Positions 8,980-60,024 of a stretch of 60,024 bases of DNA are shown here, one piece after another; position 1 is the stretch's first letter, and every line of letters starts with the position of its first letter. The stretch covers positions 1 through 60,024 of IMG/VR virus record IMGVR_UViG_3300042455_000193. One strand, 5' to 3'. The notes below the pieces were generated by a model. The model worked only from the letters and a program-made list of their open reading frames with translations. It had not been told where the DNA came from and searched no databases. This DNA comes from a virus (taxonomy: Duplodnaviria; Caudoviricetes). The translations under genes were made by a program, and so were the position numbers.

Positions 8980-9121
8980 GGTGACAGTGGATACAAAGGT
9001 TTACTAATTAGTACCAGCATTTACTAGAATTGTTTAACTTACGCGCTAATCTAAACAAAGCTTTGCAAAGGTAAATGCAGTACCGTAAACACACAGAAGT
9101 CACACAGGGTTTATACCTACC

Positions 9122-9157
9122 AGACCTACGGAGTAAACATCCGTAGGTCTTTTTTTA
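9122..9157 (+). terminator. Intrinsic terminator between int/attP and the convergent virion operon
   Basis: AGACCTACGGA-7 nt-TCCGTAGGTCT, 11-bp stem plus T-run. Confidence 0.8.
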
Positions 9158-41511: not shown

Positions 41512-41548
41512 TAAAAAGAAGGGAGGGGGTTATTCGCCCGCCTCCCTT
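41512..41548 (-). terminator. Terminator after major capsid gene
   Basis: AAGGGAGG...CCTCCCTT stem followed by CTTTTT on the minus strand. Confidence 0.65.
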
Positions 41549-41576
41549 TAAGTGGCAACTACAGGAGACCTGTTAA

Positions 41577-46042: not shown

Positions 46043-47490
46043 GTCCAACCTTTATTGTTAGCCGTCTTGATTGCTCTGGCTCGTTGTGGGTTTAAGCCCG
46101 ACCTCATCTTTAGACACGCATACTGAAGCGCATCTTGTATGTGAGAGCTATCATCTTTAATCGGGCGATCCCTGAACCTTGCAGGTCCACTTGTCTTGAT
46201 CCGCTCATAGCGGTAACGCCCATTGAAACCACGGCGAAGCTCTCGGCAGCTGGGGTCTAACAAGAATCCCGGCATACCGTCCGCCATGCGAGTGAGGAAG
46301 TACGCCACCGATTCACGGCGCGGTATCCAATCATTTGTGTTCGCTGGCTCCGAAGGAATACCAGCTTCAAGCAACTCCATAAAGCAAGTACGCTCGTCCG
46401 TCTGCGCTCTGATTGAGCCAGCAGGATCGCCAACAGAAAACCTCTGAAAGCCACTGAACTCATTCATCAGTACAGGCTTGACGATGTCGTTGGCAAACTG
46501 CCTGATACCCATGTCTTGTGACACAAGCTCACGCAAAATAACGAACTGCCCCCGTGGGGTCATCTGACAGATAACACATGCTGGGGTTAACCCGAAGTCC
46601 CAACCAAGAATGATTGGCAGTCCCCGTATGGGTTCTATCTTTTCTTTGGCTACATGGATCTTGTCGTTGAACTCCGGATACACATGCTTGCCGTCTGATG
46701 TTGTGCCGTAGTTCCCAAGCAGGAAAACATTTACCCAGTCTTCGGTTTTCGCGCCGATCTGGTTGAGGTAGTACTGGTGACCACCGGGGAGGTTGTCGAT
46801 GTTTTCTGCGTCCGGGTTCGGCTTGTACTCTTCGCCTTCTTTGTAGAGTCCACCGGCTTGGCGGAAGAACTTCCAACCCTTGGGGGTCTCTTCCTCGGCA
46901 ATTTTGTACCACCAGCTGTCGTCGTCTGGGGGGTTTGTATCAAGGATGACGCCACTCCAGCTAGGACCTCCCTTGATTTTGGAGGGGTAGCGTCCGACAC
47001 GCTGGGTGACCATGTCAAAAATTTCTTTAGGAATCTCAGAAGCCTCATTGATCCACGCTCCGGTTAACTCAAGTGATCTGAGCTTTCCCGTCTCTGACGC
47101 TTTATCTAGCGCCAAGAACAATACTTCAAGCTCAAGCGATGTCCCATCCCCCAAATCATCAATGATCATTGTTGATGTAATGGGCGTATCCCACTTCACG
47201 GGAGCTACGTTAGATGGAAACCATGTCTCCCAAGTCTTAATAGTCGTGGACTTAAGCTCTGGATATGTGTTCCTGATGACTGCCCAGCGGCTGCGGCGCA
47301 CTCCGTCGTACCAAGGCTCTTGCCTTAAGGCTCTTGCGACGATCTCAACACAGCAAGAAGAAGACTTACCGGAGCCAACTGGCCCCATCAAACCCCGTAC
47401 AAAGCCGTTATGGGCGTGAAAAAGCCCAGCTTGAGGTCCAGGTGGGTCATACGAGATTAACTCGCCAGAGGTCTCGACCGCTTCAGTCAC
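46039..47490 (-). CDS. terL: Terminase large subunit
   Basis: Walker A GPVGSGKS, WINEASE, DTNPP, GWDFG, HIQDALQY. Confidence 0.95.
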   Translation of the reverse strand: MTEAVETSGELISYDPPGPQAGLFHAHNGFVRGLMGPVGSGKSSSCCVEIVARALRQEPWYDGVRRSRWAVIRNTYPELKSTTIKTWETWFPSNVAPVKWDTPITSTMIIDDLGDGTSLELEVLFLALDKASETGKLRSLELTGAWINEASEIPKEIFDMVTQRVGRYPSKIKGGPSWSGVILDTNPPDDDSWWYKIAEEETPKGWKFFRQAGGLYKEGEEYKPNPDAENIDNLPGGHQYYLNQIGAKTEDWVNVFLLGNYGTTSDGKHVYPEFNDKIHVAKEKIEPIRGLPIILGWDFGLTPACVICQMTPRGQFVILRELVSQDMGIRQFANDIVKPVLMNEFSGFQRFSVGDPAGSIRAQTDERTCFMELLEAGIPSEPANTNDWIPRRESVAYFLTRMADGMPGFLLDPSCRELRRGFNGRYRYERIKTSGPARFRDRPIKDDSSHIQDALQYACLKMRSGLNPQRARAIKTANNKGWT

Positions 47491-47722
47491 TTGTTTTAGG
47501 TACGTTGAGGTTAAAAGTAATACCCTGTGCGCCCGTATCCAACTTCAAATCACTCAGATTAGGCAAAGACTTGTCTAAAAGTATCTTTGCAGCAGAGATC
47601 TGCGTTGGTGACAACGTCAATTTCCCATCAATGTGACCAGAAAGCTTGTTGATCAAGTGAGCAACTTGGATTTTCTTCCTCGTATCCTCATCATGTCGGA
47701 TCTTTCGAATACGTGCAGCCAT
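47483..47722 (-). CDS. terS: Terminase small subunit
   Basis: Overlaps terL start; QISAAKILLDKSLPNL motif. Confidence 0.75.
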   Translation of the reverse strand: MAARIRKIRHDEDTRKKIQVAHLINKLSGHIDGKLTLSPTQISAAKILLDKSLPNLSDLKLDTGAQGITFNLNVPKTSD

Positions 47723-47780
47723 GTATTTACCCCTGTTTAACCCCTTTTCAGTAGCGCAGCTACAAAGAGCGAGCGCAAAT

Positions 47781-47810
47781 AAAAAAAGCCAACTCGTAAG
47801 TCAGCTTTTT
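47781..47810 (-). terminator. Intrinsic terminator just upstream of terS (tR'-like)
   Basis: Minus strand GCUGACU-UACG-AGUUGGC-U7. Confidence 0.75.
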
Positions 47811-48256
47811 CTTGGGAATATTTGTTCAATTTAGCGAAAATGTACCAATACTGTTTGATTTATGCTAGTACTATCCCTAGTATATAAACTATAAGCACCA
47901 CTATTGTGCATTCTCGGTACTCTATTAGAGATAGATAGCTATCTTGCAAGCGGAACAAGGTCCGCTTGCTAGTAAACCCCACAAAAAAATTAAAAACTAG
48001 GCTGGTTAACACCCGGGGGGTAGATCACAAGGGTCCATAGGGAGAAGTGCGTTCGTAGAAGTAATACGTTGTTGCTTGACTCCCCGGTAGTTGACTGCCG
48101 TGGTCCATATGGGGGTGCCCACATTGATCGCCCACTACTGTATCCCCCTGCCTACACATCACTAATCCGTGAACCCGCCTGTATCTACGTGTGTTTGTAG
48201 GTATATGTGCGAATTTATTGCGATCTTTAGCTTCTATCTACGGAGTAACAGGGATC

Positions 48257-48291
48257 TTCCCTCCCTAACGAGGAGGGAATTCACCCTTCTT
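48257..48291 (+). promoter_or_regulatory. Bulged hairpin + pyrimidine box, copy 1
   Basis: TTCCCTC-C-CT-AACG-AG-GAGGGAA-TTCACCCTTCTT. Confidence 0.5.
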
Positions 48292-48360
48292 GGCAAGTTA
48301 ACACCCGTCTGTGTTGTGTTGTCTCAACCCTTGATTTATATACCTTTTTAGGAGCTGACT

Positions 48361-48588
48361 ATGTCAACAAACCGCATACCTTTCGTGTTCAGAACAATGT
48401 TCTTCGTAGCCGATGTACTAAGCATATCGGTGATTGCTATAGCTCTGTACTCATACGTCTTTCAAGTTGTAGATGAGTATGGATACGCAATGGATGGTGT
48501 TGCAACTATTGCGGTAATTCTTGCAGGAATCTTTGGTTTAGTTGCCAACAGGTTTAACCGCAAGGAAGCCATGCACATGCATAGGTAA
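48361..48588 (+). CDS. Early two-TM membrane protein
   Basis: AGGAG RBS, two hydrophobic helices. Confidence 0.7.
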   Translation: MSTNRIPFVFRTMFFVADVLSISVIAIALYSYVFQVVDEYGYAMDGVATIAVILAGIFGLVANRFNRKEAMHMHR

Positions 48589-48614
48589 GGCTTCCTCTCT
48601 CGCTCGCTAGTCTC

Positions 48615-48650
48615 CTGCCCCCCTCGATGAGGGGGCAGTCGCCTTCTCTC
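48615..48650 (+). promoter_or_regulatory. Bulged hairpin + pyrimidine box, copy 2
   Basis: CTGCCCCCCTC-GAT-GAGGGGGCAG-TCGCCTTCTCTC. Confidence 0.6.
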
Positions 48651-48693
48651 GTGTATTTATTTAACTTTAATCATTTCCTCTAAGGAGTTAGTC

Positions 48694-49131
48694 ATGTCTC
48701 TCACAGTAGATTTCAAACCAGCATCGCAAGCCACTTTACGTCTCATGGAGACGCTTGGCATCACAGAAGTACCTCAGTCACAGACTGAAGCATCTCAGAT
48801 GATTTACAACAAGCAAGTACAGCTTGCTACTCGCATACCTACAAAAGCACAGACAGCAGCTGTCTATGCGATAGGTACTAATCCAGAAACTAAGGAACGT
48901 ATGACTAGCTGGGTAGGTCGTGATCTACCCGGCATTCGTCATCGTGAGATTAGTTTCCAGATCGAGTTGCTGAACCATCTTGCAAAGATGGAGTTGGCAA
49001 CTACACAGGCAGAAGTTAACAGCCATGCTGTGGCATTGATTAGCTGTGTCAAGACACGACTGACTAAGTCAGTCAAGGGTGCAGAGCCTGTGAAGTTCTC
49101 TACACCAGAAGCGGAAGACGCTCCTATCTAA
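48694..49131 (+). CDS. Early hypothetical protein, C-terminus EAEDAPI
   Basis: TAAGGAG RBS. Confidence 0.75.
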   Translation: MSLTVDFKPASQATLRLMETLGITEVPQSQTEASQMIYNKQVQLATRIPTKAQTAAVYAIGTNPETKERMTSWVGRDLPGIRHREISFQIELLNHLAKMELATTQAEVNSHAVALISCVKTRLTKSVKGAEPVKFSTPEAEDAPI

Positions 49132-49170
49132 GACCTTAATTTGCTACCAGTAGTGCGGTAGCTAACCCAT

Positions 49171-49216
49171 ACCTTGGTATGCCAGTAGATGCTGGTGTAC
49201 CAAGGTTTTTTCTTTT
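49171..49216 (+). terminator. Long-stem intrinsic terminator
   Basis: ACCTTGGTATGCCAG-6 nt-CTGGTGTACCAAGGT followed by a T-run. Confidence 0.8.
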
Positions 49217-49222
49217 GTTAAC

Positions 49223-49547
49223 TCACTCTCGAATCATTATTTACACGCAAGGATTTAACTATGACTGAAGCAAGATCAAAATTTCTCGCAGATGAAAACA
49301 AGTTCTTGAGAACTTGGGTTAGGGAACTAATACAAGAGAGAGACTCATTACGCCAAGAACTATTTGATATCAAAGACGATCTCATGTTTCCTGTTAAGCG
49401 TACATCTAGGGCTGTATCTATTCCTTATGAGATAGAAGACATACCTTTCTAAGGGGGAAAGCGTGGTGCTTGATTGGTTTCGGGCTTTTACCACGCTAAC
49501 CAATACCTATTTGCATTTAGTTTCACTCTCGTATCACTATTTACACG
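49223..49547 (+). repeat. 25-bp direct repeat at 49223-49247 and 49523-49547, each just before an RBS
   Basis: TCACTCTCG(A/T)ATCA(T/C)TATTTACACG, 23/25 identical; partial third copy at ~57608-57622. Confidence 0.85.
49261..49452 (+). CDS. 63-aa coiled-coil protein ending EIEDIPF
   Basis: AAGGA RBS; SSB-like C-terminal tip. Confidence 0.7.
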   Translation: MTEARSKFLADENKFLRTWVRELIQERDSLRQELFDIKDDLMFPVKRTSRAVSIPYEIEDIPF

Positions 49548-49558
49548 AAGGAATATGT

Positions 49559-49942
49559 ATGGACTCAAGCATTAAGCAACGCTGGGTCAGAGCATTACGC
49601 TCTGGCAAATACAAACAAGTAAGTGGTCAACTTAGAACCGAAGATGGCTTCTGCTGTCTAGGCGTTCTCTGCGATGTTTACAACAAAAACAATTGGACTA
49701 TCGCTGCTGATGAATATCTTGGCGATGAACACCAAGAGTGGCACTACATAGGCAACAAGGGAATGTATCAATCCATCATGAAGGATGTCTTGCCTTATGA
49801 AGTTGTTGAAGCTACTGGTTTAGATAAACAAAATCCAGAAGTGCCTTACGGCATAGATGGAGGCATGTCTTCTCTTGCCGTCATCAACGACAGTGGCGCT
49901 AGCTTTGCACAGATAGCTGACCTCATCGAGACACACCTTTAA
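49559..49942 (+). CDS. Conserved phage hypothetical protein
   Basis: WVRALRSGKYKQ...L...FCCLGVLCD...ND.G.SF.QIAD.IE. Confidence 0.8.
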   Translation: MDSSIKQRWVRALRSGKYKQVSGQLRTEDGFCCLGVLCDVYNKNNWTIAADEYLGDEHQEWHYIGNKGMYQSIMKDVLPYEVVEATGLDKQNPEVPYGIDGGMSSLAVINDSGASFAQIADLIETHL

Positions 49943-49986
49943 CAAAGTATCAGGGTTTATTCCAATATAAACTTAACTTTTAAATT

Positions 49987-50001
49987 ATTAGTATTGCTAT
50001 T
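49987..50001. promoter_or_regulatory. Operator-like site abutting ATG 50002
   Basis: ATTAGTATTGCTATT, 12/14. Confidence 0.6.
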
Positions 50002-50331
50002 ATGTCAACACCAACGCAACAATTAAACACCATGCAAGCACTAGATCTGCACCTCATGTCCCTGATCCAGCACCTCAGTCGCAGCCAGTTGGTTCGACTC
50101 GGTGACCTGATCAACAAAGCAACAGGCACTCATGAAGTTATCACCATCAACGAGATGGATGTCAAGGAATACCTTGCCGAACAGAACGTTGCTATGCCTA
50201 GCAAAGAGTCCATTCAACAAGCATGTGAGTACATCAGCCAGCGTAGTTCTTACCAAGATACGCAATGGTATGCGCACATACAAGACGCAGCTGAACACGC
50301 ATTAGGTTTAGAGGAGGTTCACCATGACTAA
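50002..50331 (+). CDS. Hypothetical protein
   Basis: ORF coupled to downstream genes; start uncertain. Confidence 0.6.
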   Translation: MSTPTQQLNTMQALDLHLMSLIQHLSRSQLVRLGDLINKATGTHEVITINEMDVKEYLAEQNVAMPSKESIQQACEYISQRSSYQDTQWYAHIQDAAEHALGLEEVHHD

Positions 50332-50518
50332 TCAGCAGTTGATAGATGTCATGCGGATTGCGAAACATCACCTTGATCACGAGTACCTACATCTTGGAAT
50401 GTTAACCCTAGGCGAACTGCTTAAACAAGACTTGAGCTTTACTGACGAGCAACTTGATGAGCTTAAGCAAAAGATCAATCGAAATCTCTCCAATGCAGAG
50501 GTAACACAACATGACTAA
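50324..50518 (+). CDS. Hypothetical protein
   Basis: GAGGAGG RBS. Confidence 0.65.
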   Translation: MTNQQLIDVMRIAKHHLDHEYLHLGMLTLGELLKQDLSFTDEQLDELKQKINRNLSNAEVTQHD

Positions 50519-50696
50519 TCAAGAGATGTACTTCGAGTACTTAGACGATCTCCGCGAAAGCGGAGTGACCAACATGTGGGGAGCAGGGGCGTACCTTGAA
50601 GACGCCTTCAGCCTACCCCGCAGAGTAGCAAGAGACGTTCTCCTTAACTGGATGAACACATACAACCAACGGCACCCACAAGGAGAAACACAATGA
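50511..50696 (+). CDS. Conserved phage hypothetical protein
   Basis: YLDDLRESGVTNMWGA..YL motif. Confidence 0.75.
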   Translation: MTNQEMYFEYLDDLRESGVTNMWGAGAYLEDAFSLPRRVARDVLLNWMNTYNQRHPQGETQ

Positions 50697-51037
50697 AAGC
50701 ATTCTTCATAGACCCATTCAACCGGACAGTCAAAGAGATTGACTACAACGGTGACTTCCGTGAGATCAGCAGACTGCTGGCATGCGACATGTTCACATGC
50801 GCAACCTTCAACAACAAACAAGATACCTTTTACGTTGATGACGAGGGTTTGTTCAGAGCAAACAGGATGTTCTTTGAACATCACGGTTATCCACAACCCT
50901 TATGTGGATTCGGGTTAGTACTAGGTAATACGCCATCAGGTGATTCATGTGAACCCACGGTAACGCTCGAAGAACTAGAGCGTGATCTCAAGTGGTACTC
51001 AGAGTTCACGGTCGGTCTGTCCGGCGCGGTCTATTAA
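50693..51037 (+). CDS. DUF3846-like protein
   Basis: IDPF...YVDDEGL...PL.G.GLV.G. Confidence 0.7.
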   Translation: MKAFFIDPFNRTVKEIDYNGDFREISRLLACDMFTCATFNNKQDTFYVDDEGLFRANRMFFEHHGYPQPLCGFGLVLGNTPSGDSCEPTVTLEELERDLKWYSEFTVGLSGAVY

Positions 51038-51046
51038 TAAAGAAGG

Positions 51047-51487
51047 GTGGGAGTAATTATGTTGAAAGATGCACAAAAACCATATGCTCGTTTGCTTATT
51101 CAAAAGCTAAAAGAGTGTGGAATCAAAGAAGTTGTTGTTACCTTTGATGGAAGCGGAGACTCCGGGCAAATCGAAGAGGTTAGCTATGGATCAATGGACA
51201 AGCCGGACGCTTTTGTTGAATGGGTTGAAATTGATTCAACTTGGATAGATGGAAGTTGGGTTGAAAAAAACGAAGTTAAAAAGATTGATATACACAGCGC
51301 CTTAGAAAACTTCTGTTACGAAGCCTTGGAAGATGCTGGCATCGATTGGTACAACAACGATGGCGGATACGGGGAACTTCGAATCAACCTAGATCCAATC
51401 GAGATTAACTTAGAAGTTAGTACAAGATACACAGAAACTTTTACAAGTTCTTTGGGATTTGACGAGAACTTAGAAGAGGTTGAATGA
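51047..51487 (+). CDS. DUF6878-like acidic protein
   Basis: V.FDGSGDSGQIE...WYNNDGGYG. Confidence 0.75.
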   Translation: MGVIMLKDAQKPYARLLIQKLKECGIKEVVVTFDGSGDSGQIEEVSYGSMDKPDAFVEWVEIDSTWIDGSWVEKNEVKKIDIHSALENFCYEALEDAGIDWYNNDGGYGELRINLDPIEINLEVSTRYTETFTSSLGFDENLEEVE

Positions 51488-51831
51488 TGCACCCACACCA
51501 TCACTCAATGACTACTGTCAAACAGTACGGCGGCAAACCTGAAGACTACGCCGCTATTCATGATTGGTTTGACGCAACCAAAGAACAGTTTGCTGATGCA
51601 AGACATCGTGCATTACGCCATCACTCTCAGGGAATCTTTGAATGCGAACGAATCTTCGGTCGTGTGATTGTCAATTCAGATGGCAAAGAAGTACCAGTCA
51701 GATACATCGGTGAGCAGCATGTCAAAGAAGACTGTGGTGGTCGCATACCAACCGTTGCTGATTGGTTCCGCAACATCAAGTTGGAAACATGGATGAACCG
51801 TGGCTACAGGATTAATGCATCAGGTGAATAA
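51484..51831 (+). CDS. DUF6915-like His-rich protein
   Basis: HP.HH...GG...DY..IHDWFD..K...RHRALRHH...EQHVKED..GRIP...DW. Confidence 0.8.
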   Translation: MMHPHHHSMTTVKQYGGKPEDYAAIHDWFDATKEQFADARHRALRHHSQGIFECERIFGRVIVNSDGKEVPVRYIGEQHVKEDCGGRIPTVADWFRNIKLETWMNRGYRINASGE

Positions 51832-51929
51832 GTCTGGCACATGCGTGAAATGAAACCAACTGAAACGGCAACGGGAATGTGCCTAGTCGTGACAGCCGGG
51901 AGAGACCGGCGCTTAACTTAAGGATCAAT

Positions 51930-52265
51930 ATGAAATACCAAACACATAACGAGACAGAAGTAGACACCAACATGTCTCATCTCCAAGGTTATATCACCGC
52001 AGATTACGAAGAACTTGTTGATGCATTCGGTCCGCCAATGCGATACGGCTTCGATGACTACAAGGTAGATGCCGAGTGGCACATCTCATTTGCAGATGGC
52101 AGCGTAGCTTCTATCTATAACTGGAAGAACGGCAGGAACTACATGGGTACACAAGGTATGGATGTACAAGACATACGTGAGTGGCATGTCGGTGGCTTCT
52201 CAAAGATCACCTTGTTTCGGTTGGCTGAAGTATTAAACAAGCAGACTGTTCAAGCAGCAGCTTAA
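51930..52265 (+). CDS. Conserved phage hypothetical protein
   Basis: LQGYI...Y..LV..FG.P...KVDAEW...IYNWK...WHVGG. Confidence 0.75.
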   Translation: MKYQTHNETEVDTNMSHLQGYITADYEELVDAFGPPMRYGFDDYKVDAEWHISFADGSVASIYNWKNGRNYMGTQGMDVQDIREWHVGGFSKITLFRLAEVLNKQTVQAAA

Positions 52266-52267
52266 TC

Positions 52268-52480
52268 ATGTTAGATCTATTCACTTGGTTCAAAGACATC
52301 TTCCGCACACCATCAGCTATTGAACTTGCATGTAAAGAATTAGATGAGGCTGAGAAGCAGCATCTGTCTCTCAATAACACCCGTGAATACGTTGCAGGAA
52401 TGTTGTCTTACCGAGAAGCTCAGATCAAAAGGCTTCGTATCTACATAGCAAACCACAGGAGTGAAGATGTACAGCTATGA
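52268..52480 (+). CDS. Hypothetical coiled-coil protein
   Basis: Packed ORF. Confidence 0.6.
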   Translation: MLDLFTWFKDIFRTPSAIELACKELDEAEKQHLSLNNTREYVAGMLSYREAQIKRLRIYIANHRSEDVQL

Positions 52481-52694
52481 ATTTCGTGGACGTAAACCCA
52501 GTGCATCACAGGTTTACAAGATGGTCATGCATGCAGCCAAGTCTGGGCATGAAAAGATCGAGATCATGTGGGGTGAAAACGCCATTGATCTTGAGTATGC
52601 ACATGGCAAATGGCATGGCTTTGGCTGGATCAAAGACATATCAGGTAACGACATGGCGCTATCAGTAGAAGCAACTCTTAGAGAGTTTGCTTAG
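52461..52694 (+). CDS. Hypothetical protein
   Basis: AGGAG RBS (likely start ATG 52467); W.GFGWI..ISG. Confidence 0.6.
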   Translation: MKMYSYEFRGRKPSASQVYKMVMHAAKSGHEKIEIMWGENAIDLEYAHGKWHGFGWIKDISGNDMALSVEATLREFA

Positions 52695-52704
52695 AAGTTC
52701 TCTC

Positions 52705-52738
52705 TCTGCCCCCTCGATGAGGGGCAGATCGTTCTCTC
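52705..52738 (+). promoter_or_regulatory. Bulged hairpin + pyrimidine box, copy 3
   Basis: TCTGCCCCCTC-GAT-GAGGGGCAGA-TCGTTCTCTC. Confidence 0.6.
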
Positions 52739-52757
52739 ATTTACTTAAGGAGGTTAC

Positions 52758-52925
52758 GTGGATAGATGGCAGGAACATGTTCGCTCAGAGATTAACTTAG
52801 CTGATGCAGACCCATACAGATTACTAGACATCATGCATAGCCTGACATCAATGGACTCACATGAGCTTATCCCTATGGATATCTCTGTTGATTTATTTGA
52901 TCTTATTGCTTTACGAAACGAATGA
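52758..52925 (+). CDS. 55-aa hypothetical protein (GTG start)
   Basis: TAAGGAGG RBS; ATGA-coupled to the next gene. Confidence 0.6.
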   Translation: MDRWQEHVRSEINLADADPYRLLDIMHSLTSMDSHELIPMDISVDLFDLIALRNE

Positions 52926-53716
52926 AACTTTTAACTCGGGCTAACACAAAGATTATCAAAGGTAAACGCAGAGGGTTCTCAACAAACATTCTGCACCTTG
53001 CGCCAGCAAAACTATCAGGGTACGAGACATGCGGTGGTCGCTCAGAACAATGCACCATCTACTGTCTCAACAAGGCTGGTCGCGGTAAGTTTGACCGCAC
53101 ACAACAAGCTCGCATCAGGAAGACTAAGTGGTTCTTTGAATCACGACTCACATTCATGGCTCAGTTAGTTAAGGATATTACGTCAGCTATCAGGTACGCC
53201 AATGCGCATGACCTTGTAGTTGCCATCAGACTTAACGGCACATCAGATATCCCGTGGGAATCAATCAAGAGCGGTGCATTTAAAAACATCATGGCACGGT
53301 TCCCTAACGTGCAGTTCTATGACTACACAAAGGTAGCTGGCAGGAAAAACATTCCGTCTAACTATCACCTTACCTTTAGCGCATCGGAATCAAATCAATC
53401 TCAGGTAACACAAGCAATTGCTAACGGTATGAACGTAGCTGTTGTCTTCGATCAGATTCCAGATAGCTATATGGGATTACCCGTCATTGATGGCGATGAG
53501 GATGATCTCAGATTCCTTGACCCAAAGGGTCACATCGTCGGACTCAAAGCAAAAGGTCCAGCAATCAAGTCAACGTCAACATTCATTGTAAGGAACAACA
53601 ATGCAATCAGAAGCATTAGAGACTTTGGTCAACAACCATTACAAAGGTTTGATCGCAGCCATAGCCTCGCACATTCAAGACAAGGTGGAAACCAACATCA
53701 GGGACTGGCTGTCTAA
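52922..53716 (+). CDS. Gp88-like (radical-SAM-related Cys triad) protein
   Basis: C..R...C...CL..AG.G, IRLNGTSDI.W, FYDYTK, NYHLTFS, D..DLRFLD. Confidence 0.8.
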   Translation: MKLLTRANTKIIKGKRRGFSTNILHLAPAKLSGYETCGGRSEQCTIYCLNKAGRGKFDRTQQARIRKTKWFFESRLTFMAQLVKDITSAIRYANAHDLVVAIRLNGTSDIPWESIKSGAFKNIMARFPNVQFYDYTKVAGRKNIPSNYHLTFSASESNQSQVTQAIANGMNVAVVFDQIPDSYMGLPVIDGDEDDLRFLDPKGHIVGLKAKGPAIKSTSTFIVRNNNAIRSIRDFGQQPLQRFDRSHSLAHSRQGGNQHQGLAV

Positions 53717-54008
53717 CGAGTTCAAGAACCAGCTTGAGCATCATCAAGTGTTAACTGCTGATAAATATGACAGTAAATCAGATGCGGAAATTTCAGATTA
53801 CTTAGATCGCAACGATTACATCAATGAGAACAACATTGATAGATACATCGAATCATACATCGAGAGCAGCGAAATAGTTACACAAGACAGCCTCAATGAT
53901 TCTATTAATGAATGGATGAGTAACAACTTTGACATCAAAGATTACGACATCGATGACACCATCACAGACGCAGTTAGGTCTTTAAGTTTCACAGTAGAAG
54001 TTAATTAA
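53601..54008 (+). CDS. Highly acidic helical protein
   Basis: AAGGA RBS; Asp/Glu-dense C-terminal half. Confidence 0.7.
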   Translation: MQSEALETLVNNHYKGLIAAIASHIQDKVETNIRDWLSNEFKNQLEHHQVLTADKYDSKSDAEISDYLDRNDYINENNIDRYIESYIESSEIVTQDSLNDSINEWMSNNFDIKDYDIDDTITDAVRSLSFTVEVN

Positions 54009-54021
54009 TAAAGGAATAAAT

Positions 54022-55203
54022 ATGAACGCCGTTACCCAACTTGAACAAGCTGCGGTAACGTCCGCCTATAAGGTAGACGTTAGCCAAGGTTCCCGCGATG
54101 GTCGTGTCTCATCACAGTGGTTCAACCGCCCAGATGATCAGCGATTCCTTAACCTCGATGACTTGGCAGCACATGTCAAGGCTCGCTCAGATGCCGCAGT
54201 GCAAACCATTGTGGATGTAGATCACATCCGTGTTCATGCCAGCATGAATGATCCAGAGAAACTCAGCCTTGAGTACCACGGTATGGAGGTGGAGCCTACA
54301 CACTGGGCTTTCGGTCAGCTGTCTAGCCTAGCCGGAGCGCCAGCTGGTTACTTGCGTAAGCTTCCCGCTACTGTAGCCGGTATCAACTTGCAGTATGGGT
54401 TGCAGAACCTGCGCAGTGAGAACGCCAAGCTTTACTACAACGAGAACCAATTACTTGCTGCCACTGGCACTGAGTATGGTCGTGTCCATGACTATGAGTT
54501 AGTCGAAGCTGTTCAGCGTATCGCTGGCAATGGGGTAGGGGATACCCGCTGGAAAGTACCGGGCGTCATCGACTGGAACACCAGCATGTACAACCCGTTC
54601 GTTAACCCAACCAAAGATACAACCACACTGTATGCCTCAGACCGTGATGTCTTCATGTTCTTGGTGGATGACACACACCCCATCGAGATTGGCAAACTCA
54701 AGAATGGTGAGCCTGACTTGATGTTCCGTGGATTCTATGTCTGGAACTCTGAGGTAGGTAGCAAGACGCTTGGCATCAGTACGTTCATGTTGCGTGGCGT
54801 ATGTGCAAACCGCAACATCTGGGGTCAGCAAGACAAGCAGAGCATGACTATTCGTCACAGCAAGAATGCACCACAGCGTTTTGCTTCGGAGGTTGGACCT
54901 GCATTGATTGAGTACTCCAATCAATCTACCCTTGGCGTAATCACCAGTATCAACCAAGCCAAGTCAACCATCGTTGCAACCAATGACGATGAACGCTTCC
55001 AATGGCTGGGCAAACAAGGCTTCAATGCCAAGCAAGCCAAGCGAATCATTGACACAGTGATTCAAGAGGAAGACACCAAGCCTCGCTCAGTCTGGGACTT
55101 TGTCCAAGGCGTGACTGCTGTTGCTCGCAACATCAAGCATACAGATGACCGCCTCGACATGGAGAAGTTGGGCGGCAAGTTAATGGACAAGGCTATTCAC
55201 TAA
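54022..55203 (+). CDS. DUF932-family protein
   Basis: SSQWF.RPDDQRF, LYASDRDVF.FLVD, RGFYVWNSEVGS, C.NRNIWG. Confidence 0.85.
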   Translation: MNAVTQLEQAAVTSAYKVDVSQGSRDGRVSSQWFNRPDDQRFLNLDDLAAHVKARSDAAVQTIVDVDHIRVHASMNDPEKLSLEYHGMEVEPTHWAFGQLSSLAGAPAGYLRKLPATVAGINLQYGLQNLRSENAKLYYNENQLLAATGTEYGRVHDYELVEAVQRIAGNGVGDTRWKVPGVIDWNTSMYNPFVNPTKDTTTLYASDRDVFMFLVDDTHPIEIGKLKNGEPDLMFRGFYVWNSEVGSKTLGISTFMLRGVCANRNIWGQQDKQSMTIRHSKNAPQRFASEVGPALIEYSNQSTLGVITSINQAKSTIVATNDDERFQWLGKQGFNAKQAKRIIDTVIQEEDTKPRSVWDFVQGVTAVARNIKHTDDRLDMEKLGGKLMDKAIH

Positions 55204-55241
55204 ACCAAAGGGGAGCTTCGGCTCCCCGCAAAGGGGGATAT

Positions 55242-55415
55242 ATGAAACGTAAACGTTGGAAGTACAAAGTTTACTTCAGGGGTTCTGTTATTAAAACATT
55301 TACCTCTCGCAAAGCTGCTCGTCATTTCATGGAACATGCAAATGAATTTGATTTGCCACTTGCTATGCCTTGGGAAACAAGATCAGAGTTATTAATGATT
55401 GGAGAATTGAAATGA
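55242..55415 (+). CDS. 57-aa basic protein
   Basis: Read manually: MKRKRWKYKVYF...; ATGA-coupled to the next gene. Confidence 0.55.
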   Translation: MKRKRWKYKVYFRGSVIKTFTSRKAARHFMEHANEFDLPLAMPWETRSELLMIGELK

Positions 55416-55849
55416 GTAATGCACAGGTTAAGTTTGCTCCAAAGACAGGCGTGTATTGGTTTGACTTTGCGACTTGGACTTTAAAGCAAGGCGATAAGTA
55501 CAAAGAGTCAACAACAAATCATGTCGTGTATCAAGCAGCAGAAAAAGAATACAAAGCATATCTGAAATTGCAGAAGAAGATCAGCAAACTTCTTGAAGAT
55601 AACTCAGTGCATGAGATACCAACAATCCTAAAGATGGATGACACTAAAGTATTTCAAATGGTTCATGAGATCTACAAGGATGGAGGGTTACATACCCCCG
55701 AAGAATTAGAAGTTGAGGGTGTTGGCGATGGGTTTGCAATTTACTTTAAGAATGTTGCCGGTGAATATATAGATGCAGAGGGTAACTTTCTGTGGTTCGA
55801 AACTGAACTCGAAGCTGAACAATATATCAAGGAGATTGGTAATGTATGA
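55412..55849 (+). CDS. Hypothetical protein
   Basis: GGAG RBS. Confidence 0.65.
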   Translation: MSNAQVKFAPKTGVYWFDFATWTLKQGDKYKESTTNHVVYQAAEKEYKAYLKLQKKISKLLEDNSVHEIPTILKMDDTKVFQMVHEIYKDGGLHTPEELEVEGVGDGFAIYFKNVAGEYIDAEGNFLWFETELEAEQYIKEIGNV

Positions 55850-56132
55850 ACAATTAATTGAAGCATCAACCGCTTTTTATGAATGGGAAGAACTTAGGTA
55901 CAGCGGGAACTCACCACTTAGTGATGATGACAAACAGATATGGATGCAGGGTTATGTGTATGCATCTGAATTATTGAAACATAAGAACAGTCTTGCAGAC
56001 ACGAGAACACCTGATGAACTGTATAACTTTCTTGATGACAATGGTATTGAATACGAATTTGTTGAACAGTTTGAAGGCGTCAGAATATTAAGCATAGAGG
56101 TAGCTGAAATTGAGGAGGAGCAAGATGATTGA
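55842..56132 (+). CDS. Acidic hypothetical protein
   Basis: AGGAG RBS. Confidence 0.65.
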   Translation: MYEQLIEASTAFYEWEELRYSGNSPLSDDDKQIWMQGYVYASELLKHKNSLADTRTPDELYNFLDDNGIEYEFVEQFEGVRILSIEVAEIEEEQDD

Positions 56133-56361
56133 AGAAACAATTGAGTGGGAAGACATGGTCCAAGCGCATAAGTGGAATGCTTTACACAATGCTGCATCAG
56201 ACATGGTGAAGCTTGGTGGTGGCTTTGCTTCTGCTTTAGCTAGCGCTTGGTATAAGGCTGACAAAGCTAACAAGAGAAAGATCGAAAACGAATTCTCTGA
56301 TCTGTTCTTTCAGTACATGGATGTTGGTGACAGAGCTTGGTTCGGTAGCTCAATACATTAA
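56125..56361 (+). CDS. Conserved phage hypothetical protein
   Basis: GGGFA.AL..AW..AD..N motif. Confidence 0.7.
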   Translation: MIEETIEWEDMVQAHKWNALHNAASDMVKLGGGFASALASAWYKADKANKRKIENEFSDLFFQYMDVGDRAWFGSSIH

Positions 56362-56373
56362 GGAAAAACCAAA

Positions 56374-56565
56374 ATGAAATTGTTTGTGATTTTTGGTGAT
56401 ATCTTTTTCACCGATGACGAGGCGTTGGTCCGCTCGGTGAGTAAGGCAGGTTTCTTCGAGGAAGATGACATCGAAGACATAGCAGATGGTGGAGACTGGA
56501 TAACACCGCACTACTACAACGGCAAGATTATTTTTGCTAAATATCAAGAGGAGAAATGGAGATGA
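56374..56565 (+). CDS. Acidic hypothetical protein
   Basis: AAGGA RBS. Confidence 0.6.
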   Translation: MKLFVIFGDIFFTDDEALVRSVSKAGFFEEDDIEDIADGGDWITPHYYNGKIIFAKYQEEKWR

Positions 56566-56732
56566 CACCCGAAGATATTAAAAAAAAGTACGGCGAGGAG
56601 GCACTTAATATGTTGTATGACGATCTACTAGATTATCCAGTACATGAACTAGCCAACGCCATACTTGGATACAAAACAGAAAAACAAATAAGCAGGTGGA
56701 TTGCAGAATTAAGAGCTGAGATGGAGGAATAA
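56562..56732 (+). CDS. 56-aa hypothetical protein
   Basis: Read manually; ATGA coupling. Confidence 0.5.
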   Translation: MTPEDIKKKYGEEALNMLYDDLLDYPVHELANAILGYKTEKQISRWIAELRAEMEE

Positions 56733-56736
56733 CAGC

Positions 56737-57099
56737 ATGAAATACAAAGCATCAGTTAGATATATGACTTACTGCAACGTAGAAGTTGAAGCAGACAACG
56801 AAAGCGATGCATATGAAAAAGCTTTTCGAGCAAGGATGGAAGAAAATACTAATCATCGACATGAGGGATTCGAAGTAACAAACGTTGAATTAACAGATGA
56901 TAACTTTACCGAAGATCAGCGTGTATTTATGACAGCTTTTCAGAGCTGCGTAGGTAACGTCCCTTCTGATGTACTTAAACAATTCGTACTTCTTGAAGAT
57001 GACAATGACTTTAAAGATATGGAATATTACGGAAGCCTTGCTGATGCAAGAAGCTTATGGGAATCAGCAAGAATACATTTTCAAAAGGAAACAACATGA
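56737..57099 (+). CDS. Hypothetical protein with DpnD/PcfM-like N-terminus
   Basis: MKY...VEVEADNE.DA..KA. Confidence 0.6.
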   Translation: MKYKASVRYMTYCNVEVEADNESDAYEKAFRARMEENTNHRHEGFEVTNVELTDDNFTEDQRVFMTAFQSCVGNVPSDVLKQFVLLEDDNDFKDMEYYGSLADARSLWESARIHFQKETT

Positions 57100-57386
57100 A
57101 AAACTTACAGAAATTTTTAGAGAGAGAGAACTCATGGATCAAAACTACACAGGGTATCTGGAAGAAAACAGGTCCAGCCTTGTACGAAATTGAAACAGCA
57201 GAGGGTAGACAGCGTGTTGCCGATTCAATTGATAGCCAGTTAAGCCCAGAGAATCTTACTTGTGATGGCGAGTTGCCAGTTCGGGAGATCAATGCAAGGT
57301 ACAAGTACCTGACTGCTGCTGCTGCTGATCTGCGCAAGCTAGATCCAACTGTCAAGTTCTGGGAGTACAGCGATGAAACTTACTAA
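57096..57386 (+). CDS. Conserved phage hypothetical protein
   Basis: LSPENLTCDGE motif. Confidence 0.7.
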   Translation: MKNLQKFLERENSWIKTTQGIWKKTGPALYEIETAEGRQRVADSIDSQLSPENLTCDGELPVREINARYKYLTAAAADLRKLDPTVKFWEYSDETY

Positions 57387-57543
57387 GGCACAGCAACAGG
57401 CTCTTAAGCGGGTCTGGTTACGTGGGAGTGAGAAGACATACCTCCAGTTCCGTCGCGGCGTGGCGATGGGATCAGGCTGTATCATGGTTCACTGGTGCAA
57501 CATGTGGCTTGGCATCGAGCCAGATGGGTATACCCATTCTTAA
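57373..57543 (+). CDS. 56-aa hypothetical protein
   Basis: Read manually: ...YLQFRR...MWLGIEPDGYTHS. Confidence 0.65.
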   Translation: MKLTKAQQQALKRVWLRGSEKTYLQFRRGVAMGSGCIMVHWCNMWLGIEPDGYTHS

Positions 57544-57552
57544 ATCATGAAT

Positions 57553-57585
57553 ATACAGGGATAGCCTTCGGGCTATCTCCTGTAT
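57553..57585. terminator. Hairpin at the convergence of early and replication operons
   Basis: ATACAGGGATAGCC-TTCG-GGCTATCTCCTGTAT. Confidence 0.75.
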
Positions 57586-57627
57586 TAAAAATTCCTGAAC
57601 GGGCGACTCATTATTTACACGCGCCAA

Positions 57628-57888
57628 TTACAAAATATCTTTGAGCATGGTCATGTAGACTGGAGTCTTATCCCCCATGTATGCGCCTTCAATGTTGTAC
57701 TCGTAATACTCTGCCGCCTCTTGATAACTCATCTCTTTGTTTAAGATTTCAATAATCTTGTAGCTATCGTAGACGGCAACCAGTCCAGTGTTTTTGTAGA
57801 CAAGCCCAACAATTGCTTCGTCAAACTTCTCTTCATCTAGTAGCAAGATCTCTGGATTCTCATCAGCCAACTGATCTCTTATCGTCAT
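57628..57888 (-). CDS. Conserved phage hypothetical protein
   Basis: FDEAIVG...VAVYD...EA.EYYEYNI.GAYMG..TP. Confidence 0.75.
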   Translation of the reverse strand: MTIRDQLADENPEILLLDEEKFDEAIVGLVYKNTGLVAVYDSYKIIEILNKEMSYQEAAEYYEYNIEGAYMGDKTPVYMTMLKDIL

Positions 57889-58373
57889 GCCTTTACCCTC
57901 CCTGACTCTAGCCATTCCCACAAATCATCAAGCGCACGAAGCATCTGCCTCTCCATCGAGTGAGCAAACGATGACCTTAACTTAAATGCCTTGTAGTTAG
58001 TTAACCCAACCTCGGCTGCACATTTACGCACACTGGCTGCAGTCAAGATCTTTTGCACATCCTGCTTTGTCAAGTTGTTCTTTACAGCATCAGGGTTACG
58101 CACTAGTTGTTCAGCTAGTTGTTGAGCGCATACCTTCCGCTCATTCTTGTCGCCGTAAGTTAAGTAGATCCATAACTGTTGATCCATTGGCATCCTATCT
58201 ATCTTGCCAAAGATCATTCCAGCCTGTGCATGAAAGTCGTATGCAGATAAACTGTTTTCATTACGAACTTTCATCTTATCTTTCGACATGAATACACCTG
58301 ATGGTGTAGAGATGATTGGTTTGTTTCGCATACGGAATGCAAATCGGAGTGCTGCTTCTGGTGAGGAGAACAT
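57885..58373 (-). CDS. Putative late regulator / Q-like antiterminator
   Basis: Follows rusA; C-terminal HTH-like SVRKCAAEVGLT. Confidence 0.45.
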   Translation of the reverse strand: MFSSPEAALRFAFRMRNKPIISTPSGVFMSKDKMKVRNENSLSAYDFHAQAGMIFGKIDRMPMDQQLWIYLTYGDKNERKVCAQQLAEQLVRNPDAVKNNLTKQDVQKILTAASVRKCAAEVGLTNYKAFKLRSSFAHSMERQMLRALDDLWEWLESGRVKA

Positions 58374-58879
58374 TACATTTCCTCCATGCAAACATACAAA
58401 CTATCTTCCTCAGACCAGAGCTTCACAATGTGACAGTCGCATACCTGTGTATCGTCAAGGTAAAGCCAACGATTGAGTGAGTCCAAGACAATCTTGACAA
58501 CGTTATCAACGTCCGGTTTCTTTGGTGGGATCTGCTGGTGAATAGCAAGATCTTTATCTTTCTTGGACCATGACTTTGGAATCTTGTAGTAAGCCACGAT
58601 ACGGGCTCTAACGCAGCCTTCCCAAGGCTTTTGCCCAGCCATGAGGGGTAACACTACATCCCTTATCAATGACTCGTATGAGCGTGTTAGCTGTGGGGTA
58701 ATTGCAACCCCTGTCTTCTTTACAAAGTGGGGTCTACCTTTACCAATTACTTTCCCCGGAATAACAAATTCAATCTTCCGTGGTGCGGCGAGGTGGGCGG
58801 TAGTCGTAGCACCGCTCGATAGGAGCCGCTCGGTAGAGCTCACAGCGGCGGACAATTTTAAGTTGGTCGTATCGTTCAT
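58373..58879 (-). CDS. rusA: RusA-like Holliday junction resolvase
   Basis: F.IPG...GKGRP, KPDVDNVVK..LDSLN...DDTQV. Confidence 0.9.
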   Translation of the reverse strand: MNDTTNLKLSAAVSSTERLLSSGATTTAHLAAPRKIEFVIPGKVIGKGRPHFVKKTGVAITPQLTRSYESLIRDVVLPLMAGQKPWEGCVRARIVAYYKIPKSWSKKDKDLAIHQQIPPKKPDVDNVVKIVLDSLNRWLYLDDTQVCDCHIVKLWSEEDSLYVCMEEM

Positions 58880-58903
58880 AGTAATGTCTGCATCCTTCGC
58901 AAG

Positions 58904-59239
58904 TTAAGCCCCGTATGCTTTTCTTTCCATCCGCTCGTTCGCTTGATGGGTTCTCCATACTTCAATCTCCAATTCAATTCGTTTGATTTCAAAGCGCTGG
59001 AGTTCTTCAGCCTCCACTGCATCCCTTAATACTTCCAGATGTTTGATGTACTCCGGTCGTGAGTAAGACTCACGCTCCTGCGCAGACACGCTAGTGAATC
59101 CCTTGCGCTCTGCATCTTTCAGAAGCAGACTTAACAAACTCTTTTTGTATTCTTCTAAGTACACGCGATGAGACTTAGCTTGACTGTAGGGAGCTCCCTT
59201 CATCCGGTATTCGTACAGTAATTTTTCAATGTCATGCAT
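58904..59239 (-). CDS. Conserved helical phage protein (possibly UvsY-like)
   Basis: YLEEYKKS...AQERE.Y...Y...IEVWRT..AN.R. Confidence 0.65.
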   Translation of the reverse strand: MHDIEKLLYEYRMKGAPYSQAKSHRVYLEEYKKSLLSLLLKDAERKGFTSVSAQERESYSRPEYIKHLEVLRDAVEAEELQRFEIKRIELEIEVWRTHQANERMERKAYGA

Positions 59240-59747
59240 GTGTAGCTCCTTGTAAAACTGTTAACAAATCTTCAATAGAACCAAGGTGCTGTTGCAGCAC
59301 ACTGTGGCGTGGTCCGTAACCAAAGTCCTCTACTGTTTTGATCCGGCGAAACTTATCTTTAGAGATAGCGCCAGTTAACCTGACACTTGCAGGTCCAGTC
59401 ACTGCTGCACCAACAAGAATGTCAGCCCTGACATCATCAATGTCATCAACGTACAGTCTGTTGTTGCTGCCGTAATCTTTTGATAGCGTCTTGACTTGAA
59501 TCCTTTTGTCTGAATGCCTGATGTCTGAGCCATCGTCACCATAGAAAAGCAAGTCAACATGAAATGGAATACCTAATACTTTGCACAAGCCTGACTCACC
59601 CATCAACCCAATCAGATGAAGTGCATAGTCATCAATGTCTGTGGTGTACTTTTTGTTTCGCAGTTGATTTAGTTTCTTGGTCTCATAGATCAATGATGCG
59701 TAATGCAAGATCGTGTGCATCTCTGGTGCTGTGAAAATAACTTTCAT
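59232..59747 (-). CDS. Second copy of the PD-(D/E)xK-like protein
   Basis: Protein identical to 312-827. Confidence 0.6.
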   Translation of the reverse strand: MKVIFTAPEMHTILHYASLIYETKKLNQLRNKKYTTDIDDYALHLIGLMGESGLCKVLGIPFHVDLLFYGDDGSDIRHSDKRIQVKTLSKDYGSNNRLYVDDIDDVRADILVGAAVTGPASVRLTGAISKDKFRRIKTVEDFGYGPRHSVLQQHLGSIEDLLTVLQGATHA

Positions 59748-60024
59748 TTCAACCCCAGCAATCCCTGCTTCCACATCTCTATCTGTGTGCGGCAGATAGC
59801 AGTCAAGATGTAGTCACGCTTTTCTTCTTTGTTCATGCGTGTACCAGTGTCATACTTGGTATGACAGGAGTAGCACAGCCACGCTGTCATACAGTCATGA
59901 GCCTTGTGCCCCATGCCTTTGTCATGCTCTTGCAAATTGCTATGCGCTGCCACAACAGTGCCATCATCTGCAAAGCACATGACACAGCGCTGCCCCTTGG
60001 CAAGCTTGAGTAACTTGTCGCTTC
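59744..60024 (-). CDS. Second, 5'-truncated copy of the DUF1364-like protein
   Basis: Two amino-acid differences from copy 1 (I/T, H/Q). Confidence 0.7.
   Translation of the reverse strand, partial: SDKLLKLAKGQRCVMCFADDGTVVAAHSNLQEHDKGMGHKAHDCMTAWLCYSCHTKYDTGTRMNKEEKRDYILTAICRTQIEMWKQGLLGLK

Follow-up and report, generated by a model that had tools for sequence, protein, structure and literature searches.

Bulged stem-loops in the rightward operon of a temperate lake phage: a conserved family with a C/U box where relatives carry a U-tract

Introduction

What does a GC-rich hairpin do in front of a gene if it bears the apex of a common terminator and lacks the U-tract? The phage genome IMGVR_UViG_3300042455_000193 raises this question three times. 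Its whole IMG/VR virus record—60,024 bases with 46% G+C, hereafter called the window—was analyzed, and it carries three such stem-loops, HP1, HP2, and HP3, along one rightward operon. A preliminary description had placed bulged hairpins at 48257, 48615, and 52705, and all three are present there on the plus strand. It had proposed a new cis-acting system, namely protein-binding RNA sites for antitermination or hairpin promoters on incoming DNA. Here, we describe the structure, conservation, and flanks of these elements, and we tentatively favor a descent from intrinsic terminators over the functions proposed before.

The three hairpins and their flanks

The hairpins and their pyrimidine-rich neighborhoods are arranged as follows (nt, nucleotides; bp, base pairs):

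48257-48279, plus strand: HP1, a leader element with a 9-bp stem, a 4-nt loop, and one surplus C on its 5′ arm; the first gene of the operon starts 81 nt downstream
48280..48295, plus strand: C/U box after HP1, 12/16 pyrimidines, longest T run 2
48591..48614, plus strand: 5′ flank of HP2, rich in C/U; no other 25-nt stretch of the operon has more pyrimidines (21/25)
48615-48638, plus strand: HP2, between genes 1 and 2, with the next start codon 55 nt downstream
48639..48654, plus strand: C/U box after HP2, 13/16 pyrimidines, no T-tract
52705-52728 (core 52706-52727), plus strand: HP3, a near-copy of HP2 minus one C-G pair
52729..52744, plus strand: C/U box after HP3, 13/16 pyrimidines, longest T run 3

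Each hairpin stands shortly before a gene, as had been described, with 81, 55, and 29 nt to the next start codon for HP1, HP2, and HP3. HP3 itself starts 10 nt past a stop codon and ends 29 nt before an open reading frame (ORF) of 55 amino acids (aa), with the GP88 gene next; four bases of its C/U box pair weakly with the downstream ribosome-binding site. C/U-rich flanks are found on both sides of the hairpins. The pyrimidine richness of the HP2 5′ flank (21/25) is equaled in the operon by the T-run after the terminator at 49171, and among the 25-mers of the operon this flank has a C minus G value of 9, with the HP3 flank among the top five.

In all three hairpins, the 5′ arm exceeds the 3′ arm by one base: a C-run of 6 faces a G-run of 5 in HP2, 5 face 4 in HP3, and CCC faces GG in HP1. 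The outer stem of HP1 differs from that shared by HP2 and HP3, both being paired as had been noted. These GC-rich hairpins reach −12.5 to −17.7 kcal/mol on the transcribed strand. The earlier claim of one unpaired C on the 5′ arm of every copy holds for the longer arm, but not for the calculated fold: the minimum-energy structure of HP2/HP3 in ViennaRNA has an unpaired A on the 3′ side and a 5-nt loop (−16.7/−13.4 kcal/mol), and the form with a bulged 5′ C lies above it (−16.1/−12.8 kcal/mol). We prefer the 5′ bulge because relatives support it, whereas energy does not. HP2 then comprises an 8-bp lower stem, the bulged C, an upper stem of U-A and C-G, and a 3-nt loop.

The core motif singled out earlier is only partly distinctive. 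Its loose form (CCCT, 3–6 nt, AGGR) has 8 matches against 7.39 expected and is no rarer than chance, whereas the tight form (CCCTC, 3–6 nt, GAGGG) has 2 matches against 0.09 expected, a count reached in 0/100 shuffles. The bulge is real and not a read or assembly error, a worry raised from the start for its homopolymer setting: contigs of the independent DNA run X10, from another study and habitat, span HP1–HP3 with 0 gaps and no indel listed, and near-identical relatives share the run lengths of the hairpins.

Several elements end only 23–29 nt before a start codon—HP3, two in the relative L123, and those of L122 and L200. This gap leaves no room for a sigma-70-type promoter; hence, these elements would lie inside transcripts and the downstream genes would be transcribed through them. 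The available RNA data are short, low-depth contigs of two metatranscriptome libraries. Two contigs cross HP3 (52679-52941 and 52612-52910), which is weak evidence given that such libraries can hold DNA and the contigs lack transcript ends; neither the uncovered stretches nor a lone contig of 151 nt, which begins at 48638 on the final base of HP2, can be taken as evidence for RNA ends.

A two-state refolding, in which the 3′ arm pairs with the C/U box, was considered and dropped as a mechanism, as the alternative is as stable as the hairpin in HP1 only (−13.6 versus about −12.5 to −12.6 kcal/mol). Here, the box is complementary to the 3′ arm with z = −2.95 against shuffled tails; the corresponding pairing in HP2 reaches −13.6 kcal/mol with z = −1.73. 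Across 23 elements, the mean z is −1.21 against shuffled tails, with 6/23 below −1.64.

Conservation and covariation among relatives

Related loci, denoted by L numbers, were fetched via GP88 (11 loci), via the large terminase subunit TerL (80 of 167 loci kept), and via the gene 2 product (3 loci). The hairpins form a structured cis element that is specific to one strand and is conserved, with compensatory stem changes, in related phages, which settles the earlier concern that relatives might not share them. L121 carries hairpins at all three sites; L133, L135–L137, L194, L197, and L204 carry them at the HP1 and HP2 sites; L122 has one before its GP88 block and L123 has four. HP2 is identical in L120/L131 and L132, and L134 has one changed loop base. 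The common build is a lower stem of at least 6–9 bp, an extra base on the 5′ side or a 2-by-1 internal loop, an upper stem of 2–4 bp that begins with U-A and then C-G, and a loop of 3–5 nt. Between L135 and L136, the extended upper stems show a double change. Within a block of 87.2% identity, HP3 is set apart from its L121 orthologue by two stem double changes, the 5′ bulge being kept as C in the window and as A in L121. HP1 of the close relatives L132 and L134, in turn, is a perfect 9-bp stem without the bulge.

We ran a covariance model built from seven equal-length seeds of the HP2/HP3 type on 748,688 bases, comprising the window and 94 loci. Its only matches within the window are HP2 (35.6 bits, E 2e-5) and HP3 (35.0 bits) on the plus strand, and their minus strands score only 19.7 and 14.2 bits. 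HP1 is a looser member, reached with 16.2 bits (E 1.4) on the wrong strand, so a covariance check of the kind suggested earlier recovers two of the three hairpins. The 15 model-aligned hairpins have 99.3% of cells paired versus 86.4% in shuffles (0/500 reach it), and their covariation score is 0.340 versus 0.086 when shuffled (0/500) and at most 0.067 with a slid partner—figures that lean toward structure, as the alignment is fitted to the model and includes one antisense row. Three outer pairs carry double changes, whereas no variation is seen at four C-G pairs or at either apex pair.

MAFFT alignments of all hairpins came out of register and gave no RNAalifold structure. A second model, R2, missed more diverged hairpins; therefore, HP1 and the hairpins of the L121/L133 type are joined to the family by position and architecture only. 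Diverged members were assigned by position and by eye, and many relatives are mutually close. Earlier descriptions of the family were sought in Rfam and in the papers cited here. The Rfam scan of 47000-60024, likewise proposed at the outset, gave no match to a relevant curated family, only one chance-level microRNA match (E 0.74, 48070-48108). The hairpin model has no match in the locus of the cultured phage Mae-JY30 or in two distant prophage loci.

A one-base asymmetry of the stem

A descriptor blind to the bulge—C-run, TC, 3–8 nt, GA, G-run, and three complementary flanking pairs—was applied to the sense strand of the early regions. Among 22 distinct family hairpins, the C-run is one base longer than the G-run in 18, equal in 4, and never shorter; part of these 18 come from close relatives and are not independent. 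Exceptions within the family, besides HP1 of L132 and L134, are two L200 hairpins without net bulge and one L140 element with the reverse asymmetry.

The exact 15-nt apex of HP2/HP3 is widespread, with at least 121 occurrences among the matches listed from the viral collection. In these 121 listed matches, C-run minus G-run is 0 in 97, +1 in 11, −1 in 10, and −2 in 3, and at least three of the 11 copies with +1 come from relatives of the phage itself. Many of the symmetric cores are ordinary terminators, as they are flanked by an A-run and a T-run. The fixed 5′ asymmetry of the family is under selection. A generic count of 5′-bulged, perfect, and 3′-bulged hairpins was discarded as it is confounded by the palindromic core and by multiple homopolymer registers.

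A C/U box in place of the T-tract

The pyrimidine stretch reported to follow each hairpin without a U-tract is confirmed, with 12–13 pyrimidines in 16 bases. The longest T run at HP1–HP3 is 2–3, with at most 4–5 T per 8 nt, and a scan for consensus terminators flags none of the three. Taking at least 6 T in 8 as a T-tract, we examined 25 elements. A T-tract is found in 0/10 elements of the window and of relatives with TerL identity of at least 90%, and in 14/15 elements of relatives at a TerL identity of at most 85% together with L122 and L123, which were fetched via GP88; the exception is HP1 of L194. L121 was grouped with L133 because it has the same hairpins and blast pattern. The possibility that the elements are plain terminators hence fits the distant relatives, but not the window and its closest relatives. 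The C/U box stands where relatives carry the U-tract, the direction of change being read from an unrooted comparison. In several relatives with a T-tract, the bases between stem and T-run pair with upstream purines, and the extended stem abuts the T-run as judged by eye. UC-repeat flanks lie on either side of the hairpin in the window, L135, L136, and L121.

Genome and operon context

The first 1104 bases of the window are repeated at its end (1-1104 at 58921-60024, 17 mismatches in 1104 nt), and these overlapping ends imply a genome of about 58.9 kb. The end repeat seems to have arisen in assembly, as an imperfect overlap in a circular or permuted genome drawn from a mixed population. The phage is complete and temperate and comes from lakes. 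Its genes encode an integrase, a repressor-type helix-turn-helix (HTH) protein, an Erf recombinase, an exonuclease, a primase-helicase, and a RusA-type resolvase, and the public runs with its sequence are mainly lake-water metagenomes. A search for the host by way of prophage relatives gave only two distant matches, a metagenome-assembled genome of Steroidobacteraceae and Novosphingobium. Megablast of the hairpin region against cultured phages gave zero matches; at the protein level, the cultured relatives are Mae-JY30, S-ESS1, and ZS04, all distant, and nothing useful was found in the literature on them.

A long structural operon runs leftward, from terS/terL at 47722 down to an ORF of 3151 aa. 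The hairpin-bearing operon runs rightward from 48361 to about 57543 and holds many small ORFs next to DUF3846, DUF6878, DUF6915, GP88, and DUF932. The features that bear on the argument below are as follows:

48361..49131, plus strand: genes 1 and 2, framed by HP1, HP2, and the terminator at 49171
49171..49216 (hairpin 49171-49206), plus strand: canonical intrinsic terminator 3′ of gene 2, a 16-bp stem followed by a T-run, outside the bulged class
9155-18610, minus strand: ORF of 3151 aa at the end of the structural operon, with LPD38 and giant-protein PHROGs matched at the C-terminus

PHROGs and Pfam give no family match for genes 1 and 2; the gene 1 product has 75 aa with two hydrophobic stretches. 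The strong terminator noticed earlier at 49171 is a canonical one, and nucleotide homology between the window and L121 resumes exactly there. Further terminators without the bulged apex are two-way hairpins at 9120 and 57554 and a leftward T-run hairpin near terS. Matches resembling sigma-70 promoters are scarce in 47400-58000 (5 versus 19.6 ± 4.2 in shuffles), and none was found adjoining HP1, HP2, or HP3.

The leftward hairpin with its run of seven T's lies at about 47790-47815, just upstream of terS, and is kept in 7/7 aligned relatives. With a terminator in their leader, the late genes may be under read-through control in the manner of Q. The divergent intergenic region 47723-48256 around it contains blocks identical in 7/7 relatives—a 19-mer at 48061-48079, a 12-mer at 48164-48175, and an 11-mer near 47866—as well as repeated motifs of the type GGTCC(N)GGG; packaging, an origin, or a switch are possibilities for these blocks.

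A motif of 32 nt occurs three times on the plus strand (49223-49254, 49523-49554, and 57597-57628) and includes the exact 14-mer TCAYTATTTACACG at 49234, 49534, and 57608; with up to two mismatches, there are 4 matches versus 0.87 expected. Each copy comes after a hairpin, and two copies lie 10–15 nt 5′ of a ribosome site and ATG. A relative of the motif repeats in L123, once immediately upstream of a bulged hairpin. Its sequence is similar to T7-type promoter cores, yet the genome gave no match to an RNA polymerase of phages; the motif is a candidate promoter or operator. One of its copies, with a hairpin and a ribosome site, precedes an ATG at 49556 within the plus-strand ORF 49463-49942. 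The start is probably this ATG instead of the listed GTG at 49463, since the shorter protein matches all of phrog_18067.

A UUCG-type hairpin 3′ of the DUF932 gene (55204-55245) sits at a mosaic junction, with L120 departing from the window at 55245 and contigs from two DNA runs changing to other sequence from 55229. On the minus strand, a terminator at 41518-41549 follows the major head/capsid gene with a hairpin, then C and T5. It has one extra base on the 5′ arm, and its polarity is opposite to that of the HP family, the purine-rich arm being the 5′ arm. The 3151-aa protein has orthologues of 2900–3250 aa in related phages and two HExxH-like motifs near residues 820 and 1989.

Possible leaky terminators and alternative functions

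The reading that we favor, with a confidence that stays a little short of even, is that HP1–HP3 are terminator-derived leader and intercistronic stem-loops, now leaky, which serve as attenuators or pauses and as stabilizers of RNA ends. The elements would be sense-strand RNA stem-loops of a rightward, early-type accessory operon, and would form a clade-specific family that descends from ordinary intrinsic terminators and is still terminator-like in more distant relatives. Their apex—C-run, UC, short loop, GA, G-run—would be that of a terminator hairpin common in unrelated viruses, with the U-tract presumably swapped for the mixed C/U box at every site in the phage and its closest relatives. 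With the U-tract replaced, mostly read-through by the host RNA polymerase is expected. The hairpins might then act as leaky attenuators or pause sites and, moreover, as fold-back guards of the ends of the mRNA segments that they separate, with a tuned expression of the downstream gene blocks as the net effect. The structure, its conservation and strand specificity, the constant extra base on the 5′ arm, and the exchange of the tail between clades are observed, and action in RNA, weak termination, and RNA stabilization are what we infer from the comparison of sequences.

A number of observations weigh against this reading. A terminator placed ahead of the first gene, as HP1 is, calls for a reason, and the terminators at operon ends of the same genome (49171, 9120, and 57554) do not bear the HP apex. 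In one sub-clade, the T-tract is gone at all sites together, and such a joint loss suggests a change of mechanism rather than mere decay. Neither a plain nor a decayed terminator accounts for the extra 5′ base (+1 in 18/22 versus symmetric in 97/121 elsewhere), and descent from a terminator does not explain the invariance of the apex. Hairpins within one genome are often more alike than their positional counterparts across genomes; a trans factor common to them, or cassettes exchanged repeatedly, would have this outcome. The additional, fixed C beneath the U-A/C-G apex, likewise left unexplained, may be a handle for some factor.

It is possible, although we doubt it, that the bulged-C apex, with or without the C/U box, is a site for a phage or host protein that decides on read-through, by nut-like antitermination, or on translation, by Aca-like repression in the 5′ untranslated region, of accessory or anti-defense gene blocks. 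Equally doubtful is its more specific form, a clade-specific switch whose partner—less likely a polymerase delivered with the DNA—reads the extra C below the apex and gates transcription or translation of anti-defense-type blocks; it would be comparable to nut sites or to the leader motifs of Aca, though built on another RNA shape, and the swap from U-tract to C/U box would mark a rewiring of the switch in the sub-clade. The fixed asymmetry speaks for a factor (+1 in 18/22 and −1 in none, against 97/121 symmetric in unrelated viruses), as do the invariant U-A and C-G apex pairs and four C-G pairs beside three covarying outer pairs, the likeness of hairpins inside one genome, the strong terminator downstream at 49171, and a shape—a lower stem, 1–2 unpaired bases, a short upper stem that covaries, and an end 20–30 nt from the start codon—that resembles the Aca1 RNA motif of PMC13551039. 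Against it stand the ORFs of the operon, among which no HTH or ribbon-helix-helix (RHH) regulator, N-like, or Q-like family was found, and the lack of any matching DNA operator seen. The loops differ inside genomes, too (HP1 versus HP2 in L135, L136, L197, and L204), so a protein that reads the loop is unlikely. The basic 57-aa ORF at 55242-55415, proposed before as the partner, has a homologue in L121 and none in L120, a relative of 99% identity that keeps all three hairpins. An unlikely function is one in processing and stability only, in which mRNA segments cut by an endonuclease in the C/U flanks would be capped by the hairpins, or the hairpins would stand at 5′ ends, and gene blocks would thereby differ in half-life without a change in transcription. 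Their sites between or before genes, the single-stranded pyrimidine flanks on both sides, the missing U-tract in the clade, and the RNA-library contigs across HP3 are in line with this; however, relatives carry full T-tracts, hence termination was or still is part of the design, and the fixed bulge is left unexplained.

The same flanks give a slim prospect to a Rho-loading, rut-like polarity site, where the hairpin clamps two C/U tracts and a Rho-dependent stop, acting when the downstream gene is untranslated, has replaced the intrinsic one. In lambda, tR1 has the comparable arrangement rutA-boxB-rutB. The HP2 5′ flank is the top 25-mer of the operon (21/25, C minus G of 9) with the HP3 flank in the top five, UC repeats lie on both sides in the window, L135, L136, and L121, and the T-tract gives way to the C/U box at all sites at once; but the C-rich stretches are short (about 13–25 nt each), the 78-nt windows of high C/G ratio fall away from the hairpins, and the downstream genes begin just 29–81 nt away. 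Highly improbable is that the hairpins are recombination linkers or small selfish palindromes, i.e., cassettes spread by exchange with little regulatory role. They are alike within one genome, short UC direct repeats lie beside those of L135 and L136, homology breaks next to hairpins (window/L132 at 48581/48606, window/L121 at 49171, and window/L120 at 55245), loose contig ends occur at 55229 in two DNA runs, and the PeSLs (promoter-early stem-loops) of T4-type phages offer a precedent as composite terminator-promoter repeats (PMC2839356 and PMC4122927). Yet no sigma-70-like promoter is attached, there are just 2–4 copies per genome, the orthologous HP3 evolved in place with compensatory changes within the 87% block, and the fixed bulge is not explained here either. 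We attach next to no credence to single-stranded DNA hairpin promoters of the N4 type, read by a polymerase delivered with the DNA, which were suspected because of the 3151-aa ORF and are now dropped. N4 early promoters are template-strand hairpins centered at −11, followed by four A's and used by the virion polymerase, according to PMC4496689; the non-template T-run after the hairpin in relatives recalls these four A's before the start. The presence of three hairpins ahead of early-type genes, their mix of conserved and covarying stem bases, distances of 23–81 nt to start codons as suits short leaders, the scarcity of sigma-70-like matches in 47400-58000 (5 versus 19.6 ± 4.2), and a virion-type protein of 3151 aa with about 2200 residues of unassigned function fit such promoters as well. 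On the other hand, the PDB—which includes the N4, T7, and crAss-like phage polymerases—returned one match at 0.084 to an ATP synthase subunit for the single 3151-aa sequence and 0 matches at E up to 1 for a profile of eight sequences, both at the level of sequence or profile. The look-alikes of this protein are large polyvalent and DarB-like proteins, the motifs DxDGD and R-x3-K-x6-8-YG were not found in it, and no other ORF of the genome matches an RNA polymerase, which leaves the earlier idea of hairpin promoters on incoming DNA without a detected enzyme. ORFs of 264 and 393 aa were rejected as N4 RNAPII subunits, being GP88 and DUF932. In addition, the bulged stems of 8–10 bp with a variable loop center differ from the 5–7 bp and central purine of N4, and the phage carries integrase and repressor.

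Whichever function applies, the family is a natural series of one hairpin with a fixed one-base asymmetry and either a U-tract or a C/U box by clade. It opens two questions: what becomes of a terminator hairpin after loss of the U-tract, and whether a single bulged base recruits a factor. The operon behind the hairpins contains domains typical of anti-defense or first-expressed genes (DUF932, GP88, and DUF3846), and across a widespread group of lake phages the elements may set the dose or timing of genes of this kind. Should they be nothing more than decayed terminators, the result would be an ordinary one.

Comparison with known systems

Lambda boxB has a stem of about 5 bp and a purine-rich pentaloop. 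Like the nut/tR1 region of lambda, the phage has an early-leader hairpin, pyrimidine-rich flanking boxes, and a strong terminator downstream, and its hairpin sequences are common within a phage and divergent between phages. However, its stems have 8–10 bp with a bulge, and its loops of 3–5 nt vary between and within genomes. The C/U box shares just a CUCUU-like core with boxA and lies after the hairpin, the order being reversed with respect to lambda. No family match to an N-type protein was found among the early ORFs. Antitermination at a site of the lambda nut type is not borne out: the boxB shape is missing, the box is downstream, and the gene 1 product is not N-like.

The early promoters of N4 share with HP1–HP3 the three hairpins before early genes, stem bases of which some are conserved and others merely pair, and—in relatives of the phage—a homopolymer spacer after the hairpin. 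They differ, according to PMC4496689, in stems of 5–7 bp, a 3-nt loop with a central purine, no bulge, and the need for a virion RNA polymerase. In HP2 and HP3, T occupies the center of the template-strand loop, a position that varies in relatives.

The Aca1/Aca2 RNA motifs belong to the 5′ untranslated regions of anti-CRISPR operons. In the Aca1 motif as described in PMC13551039, a conserved stem at the base is followed by no more than two unpaired bases and then by an upper stem that covaries; about 20 nt separate the motif from the start codon. Small inverted repeats in the leader of an anti-defense-type operon and a similar stem layout are thus common to the Aca1/Aca2 motifs and the phage; the distance to the start codon is 29 nt for HP3, 55 for HP2, and 81 for HP1. 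In contrast, the stems of the phage are longer and GC-rich, and relatives add a T-tract. No Aca-like HTH/RHH gene emerged when 29 and 28 small ORFs were scanned against Pfam and PHROGs, the sole HTH protein (3179-3769) lies in another transcription unit, and no DNA operator matching the hairpins in the Aca style was found.

T4-type phages carry PeSL cassettes, repeated modules that combine a terminator with a promoter, lie at mosaic junctions, and act as terminators or attenuators (PMC2839356 and PMC4122927). They resemble HP1–HP3 as genome-specific repeated stem-loops before small accessory or early genes at mosaic junctions. Unlike the hairpins of the phage, with 2–4 copies and a fixed bulge, they come with a near-consensus sigma-70 promoter and in dozens of copies in these sources.

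Attenuators built from intrinsic terminators differ from the phage elements in the U-tract, which the phage does without; the extra 5′ base in 18/22 hairpins, the copy that stands before the first gene, and an apex that is missing from the operon-end terminators of the genome set the phage elements apart as well. What they have in common is a GC-rich, intergenic hairpin on the sense strand, the same 15-nt apex as in many unrelated viral terminators, and the T-tract present in 14/15 elements of L122, L123, and the relatives at a TerL identity of at most 85%.

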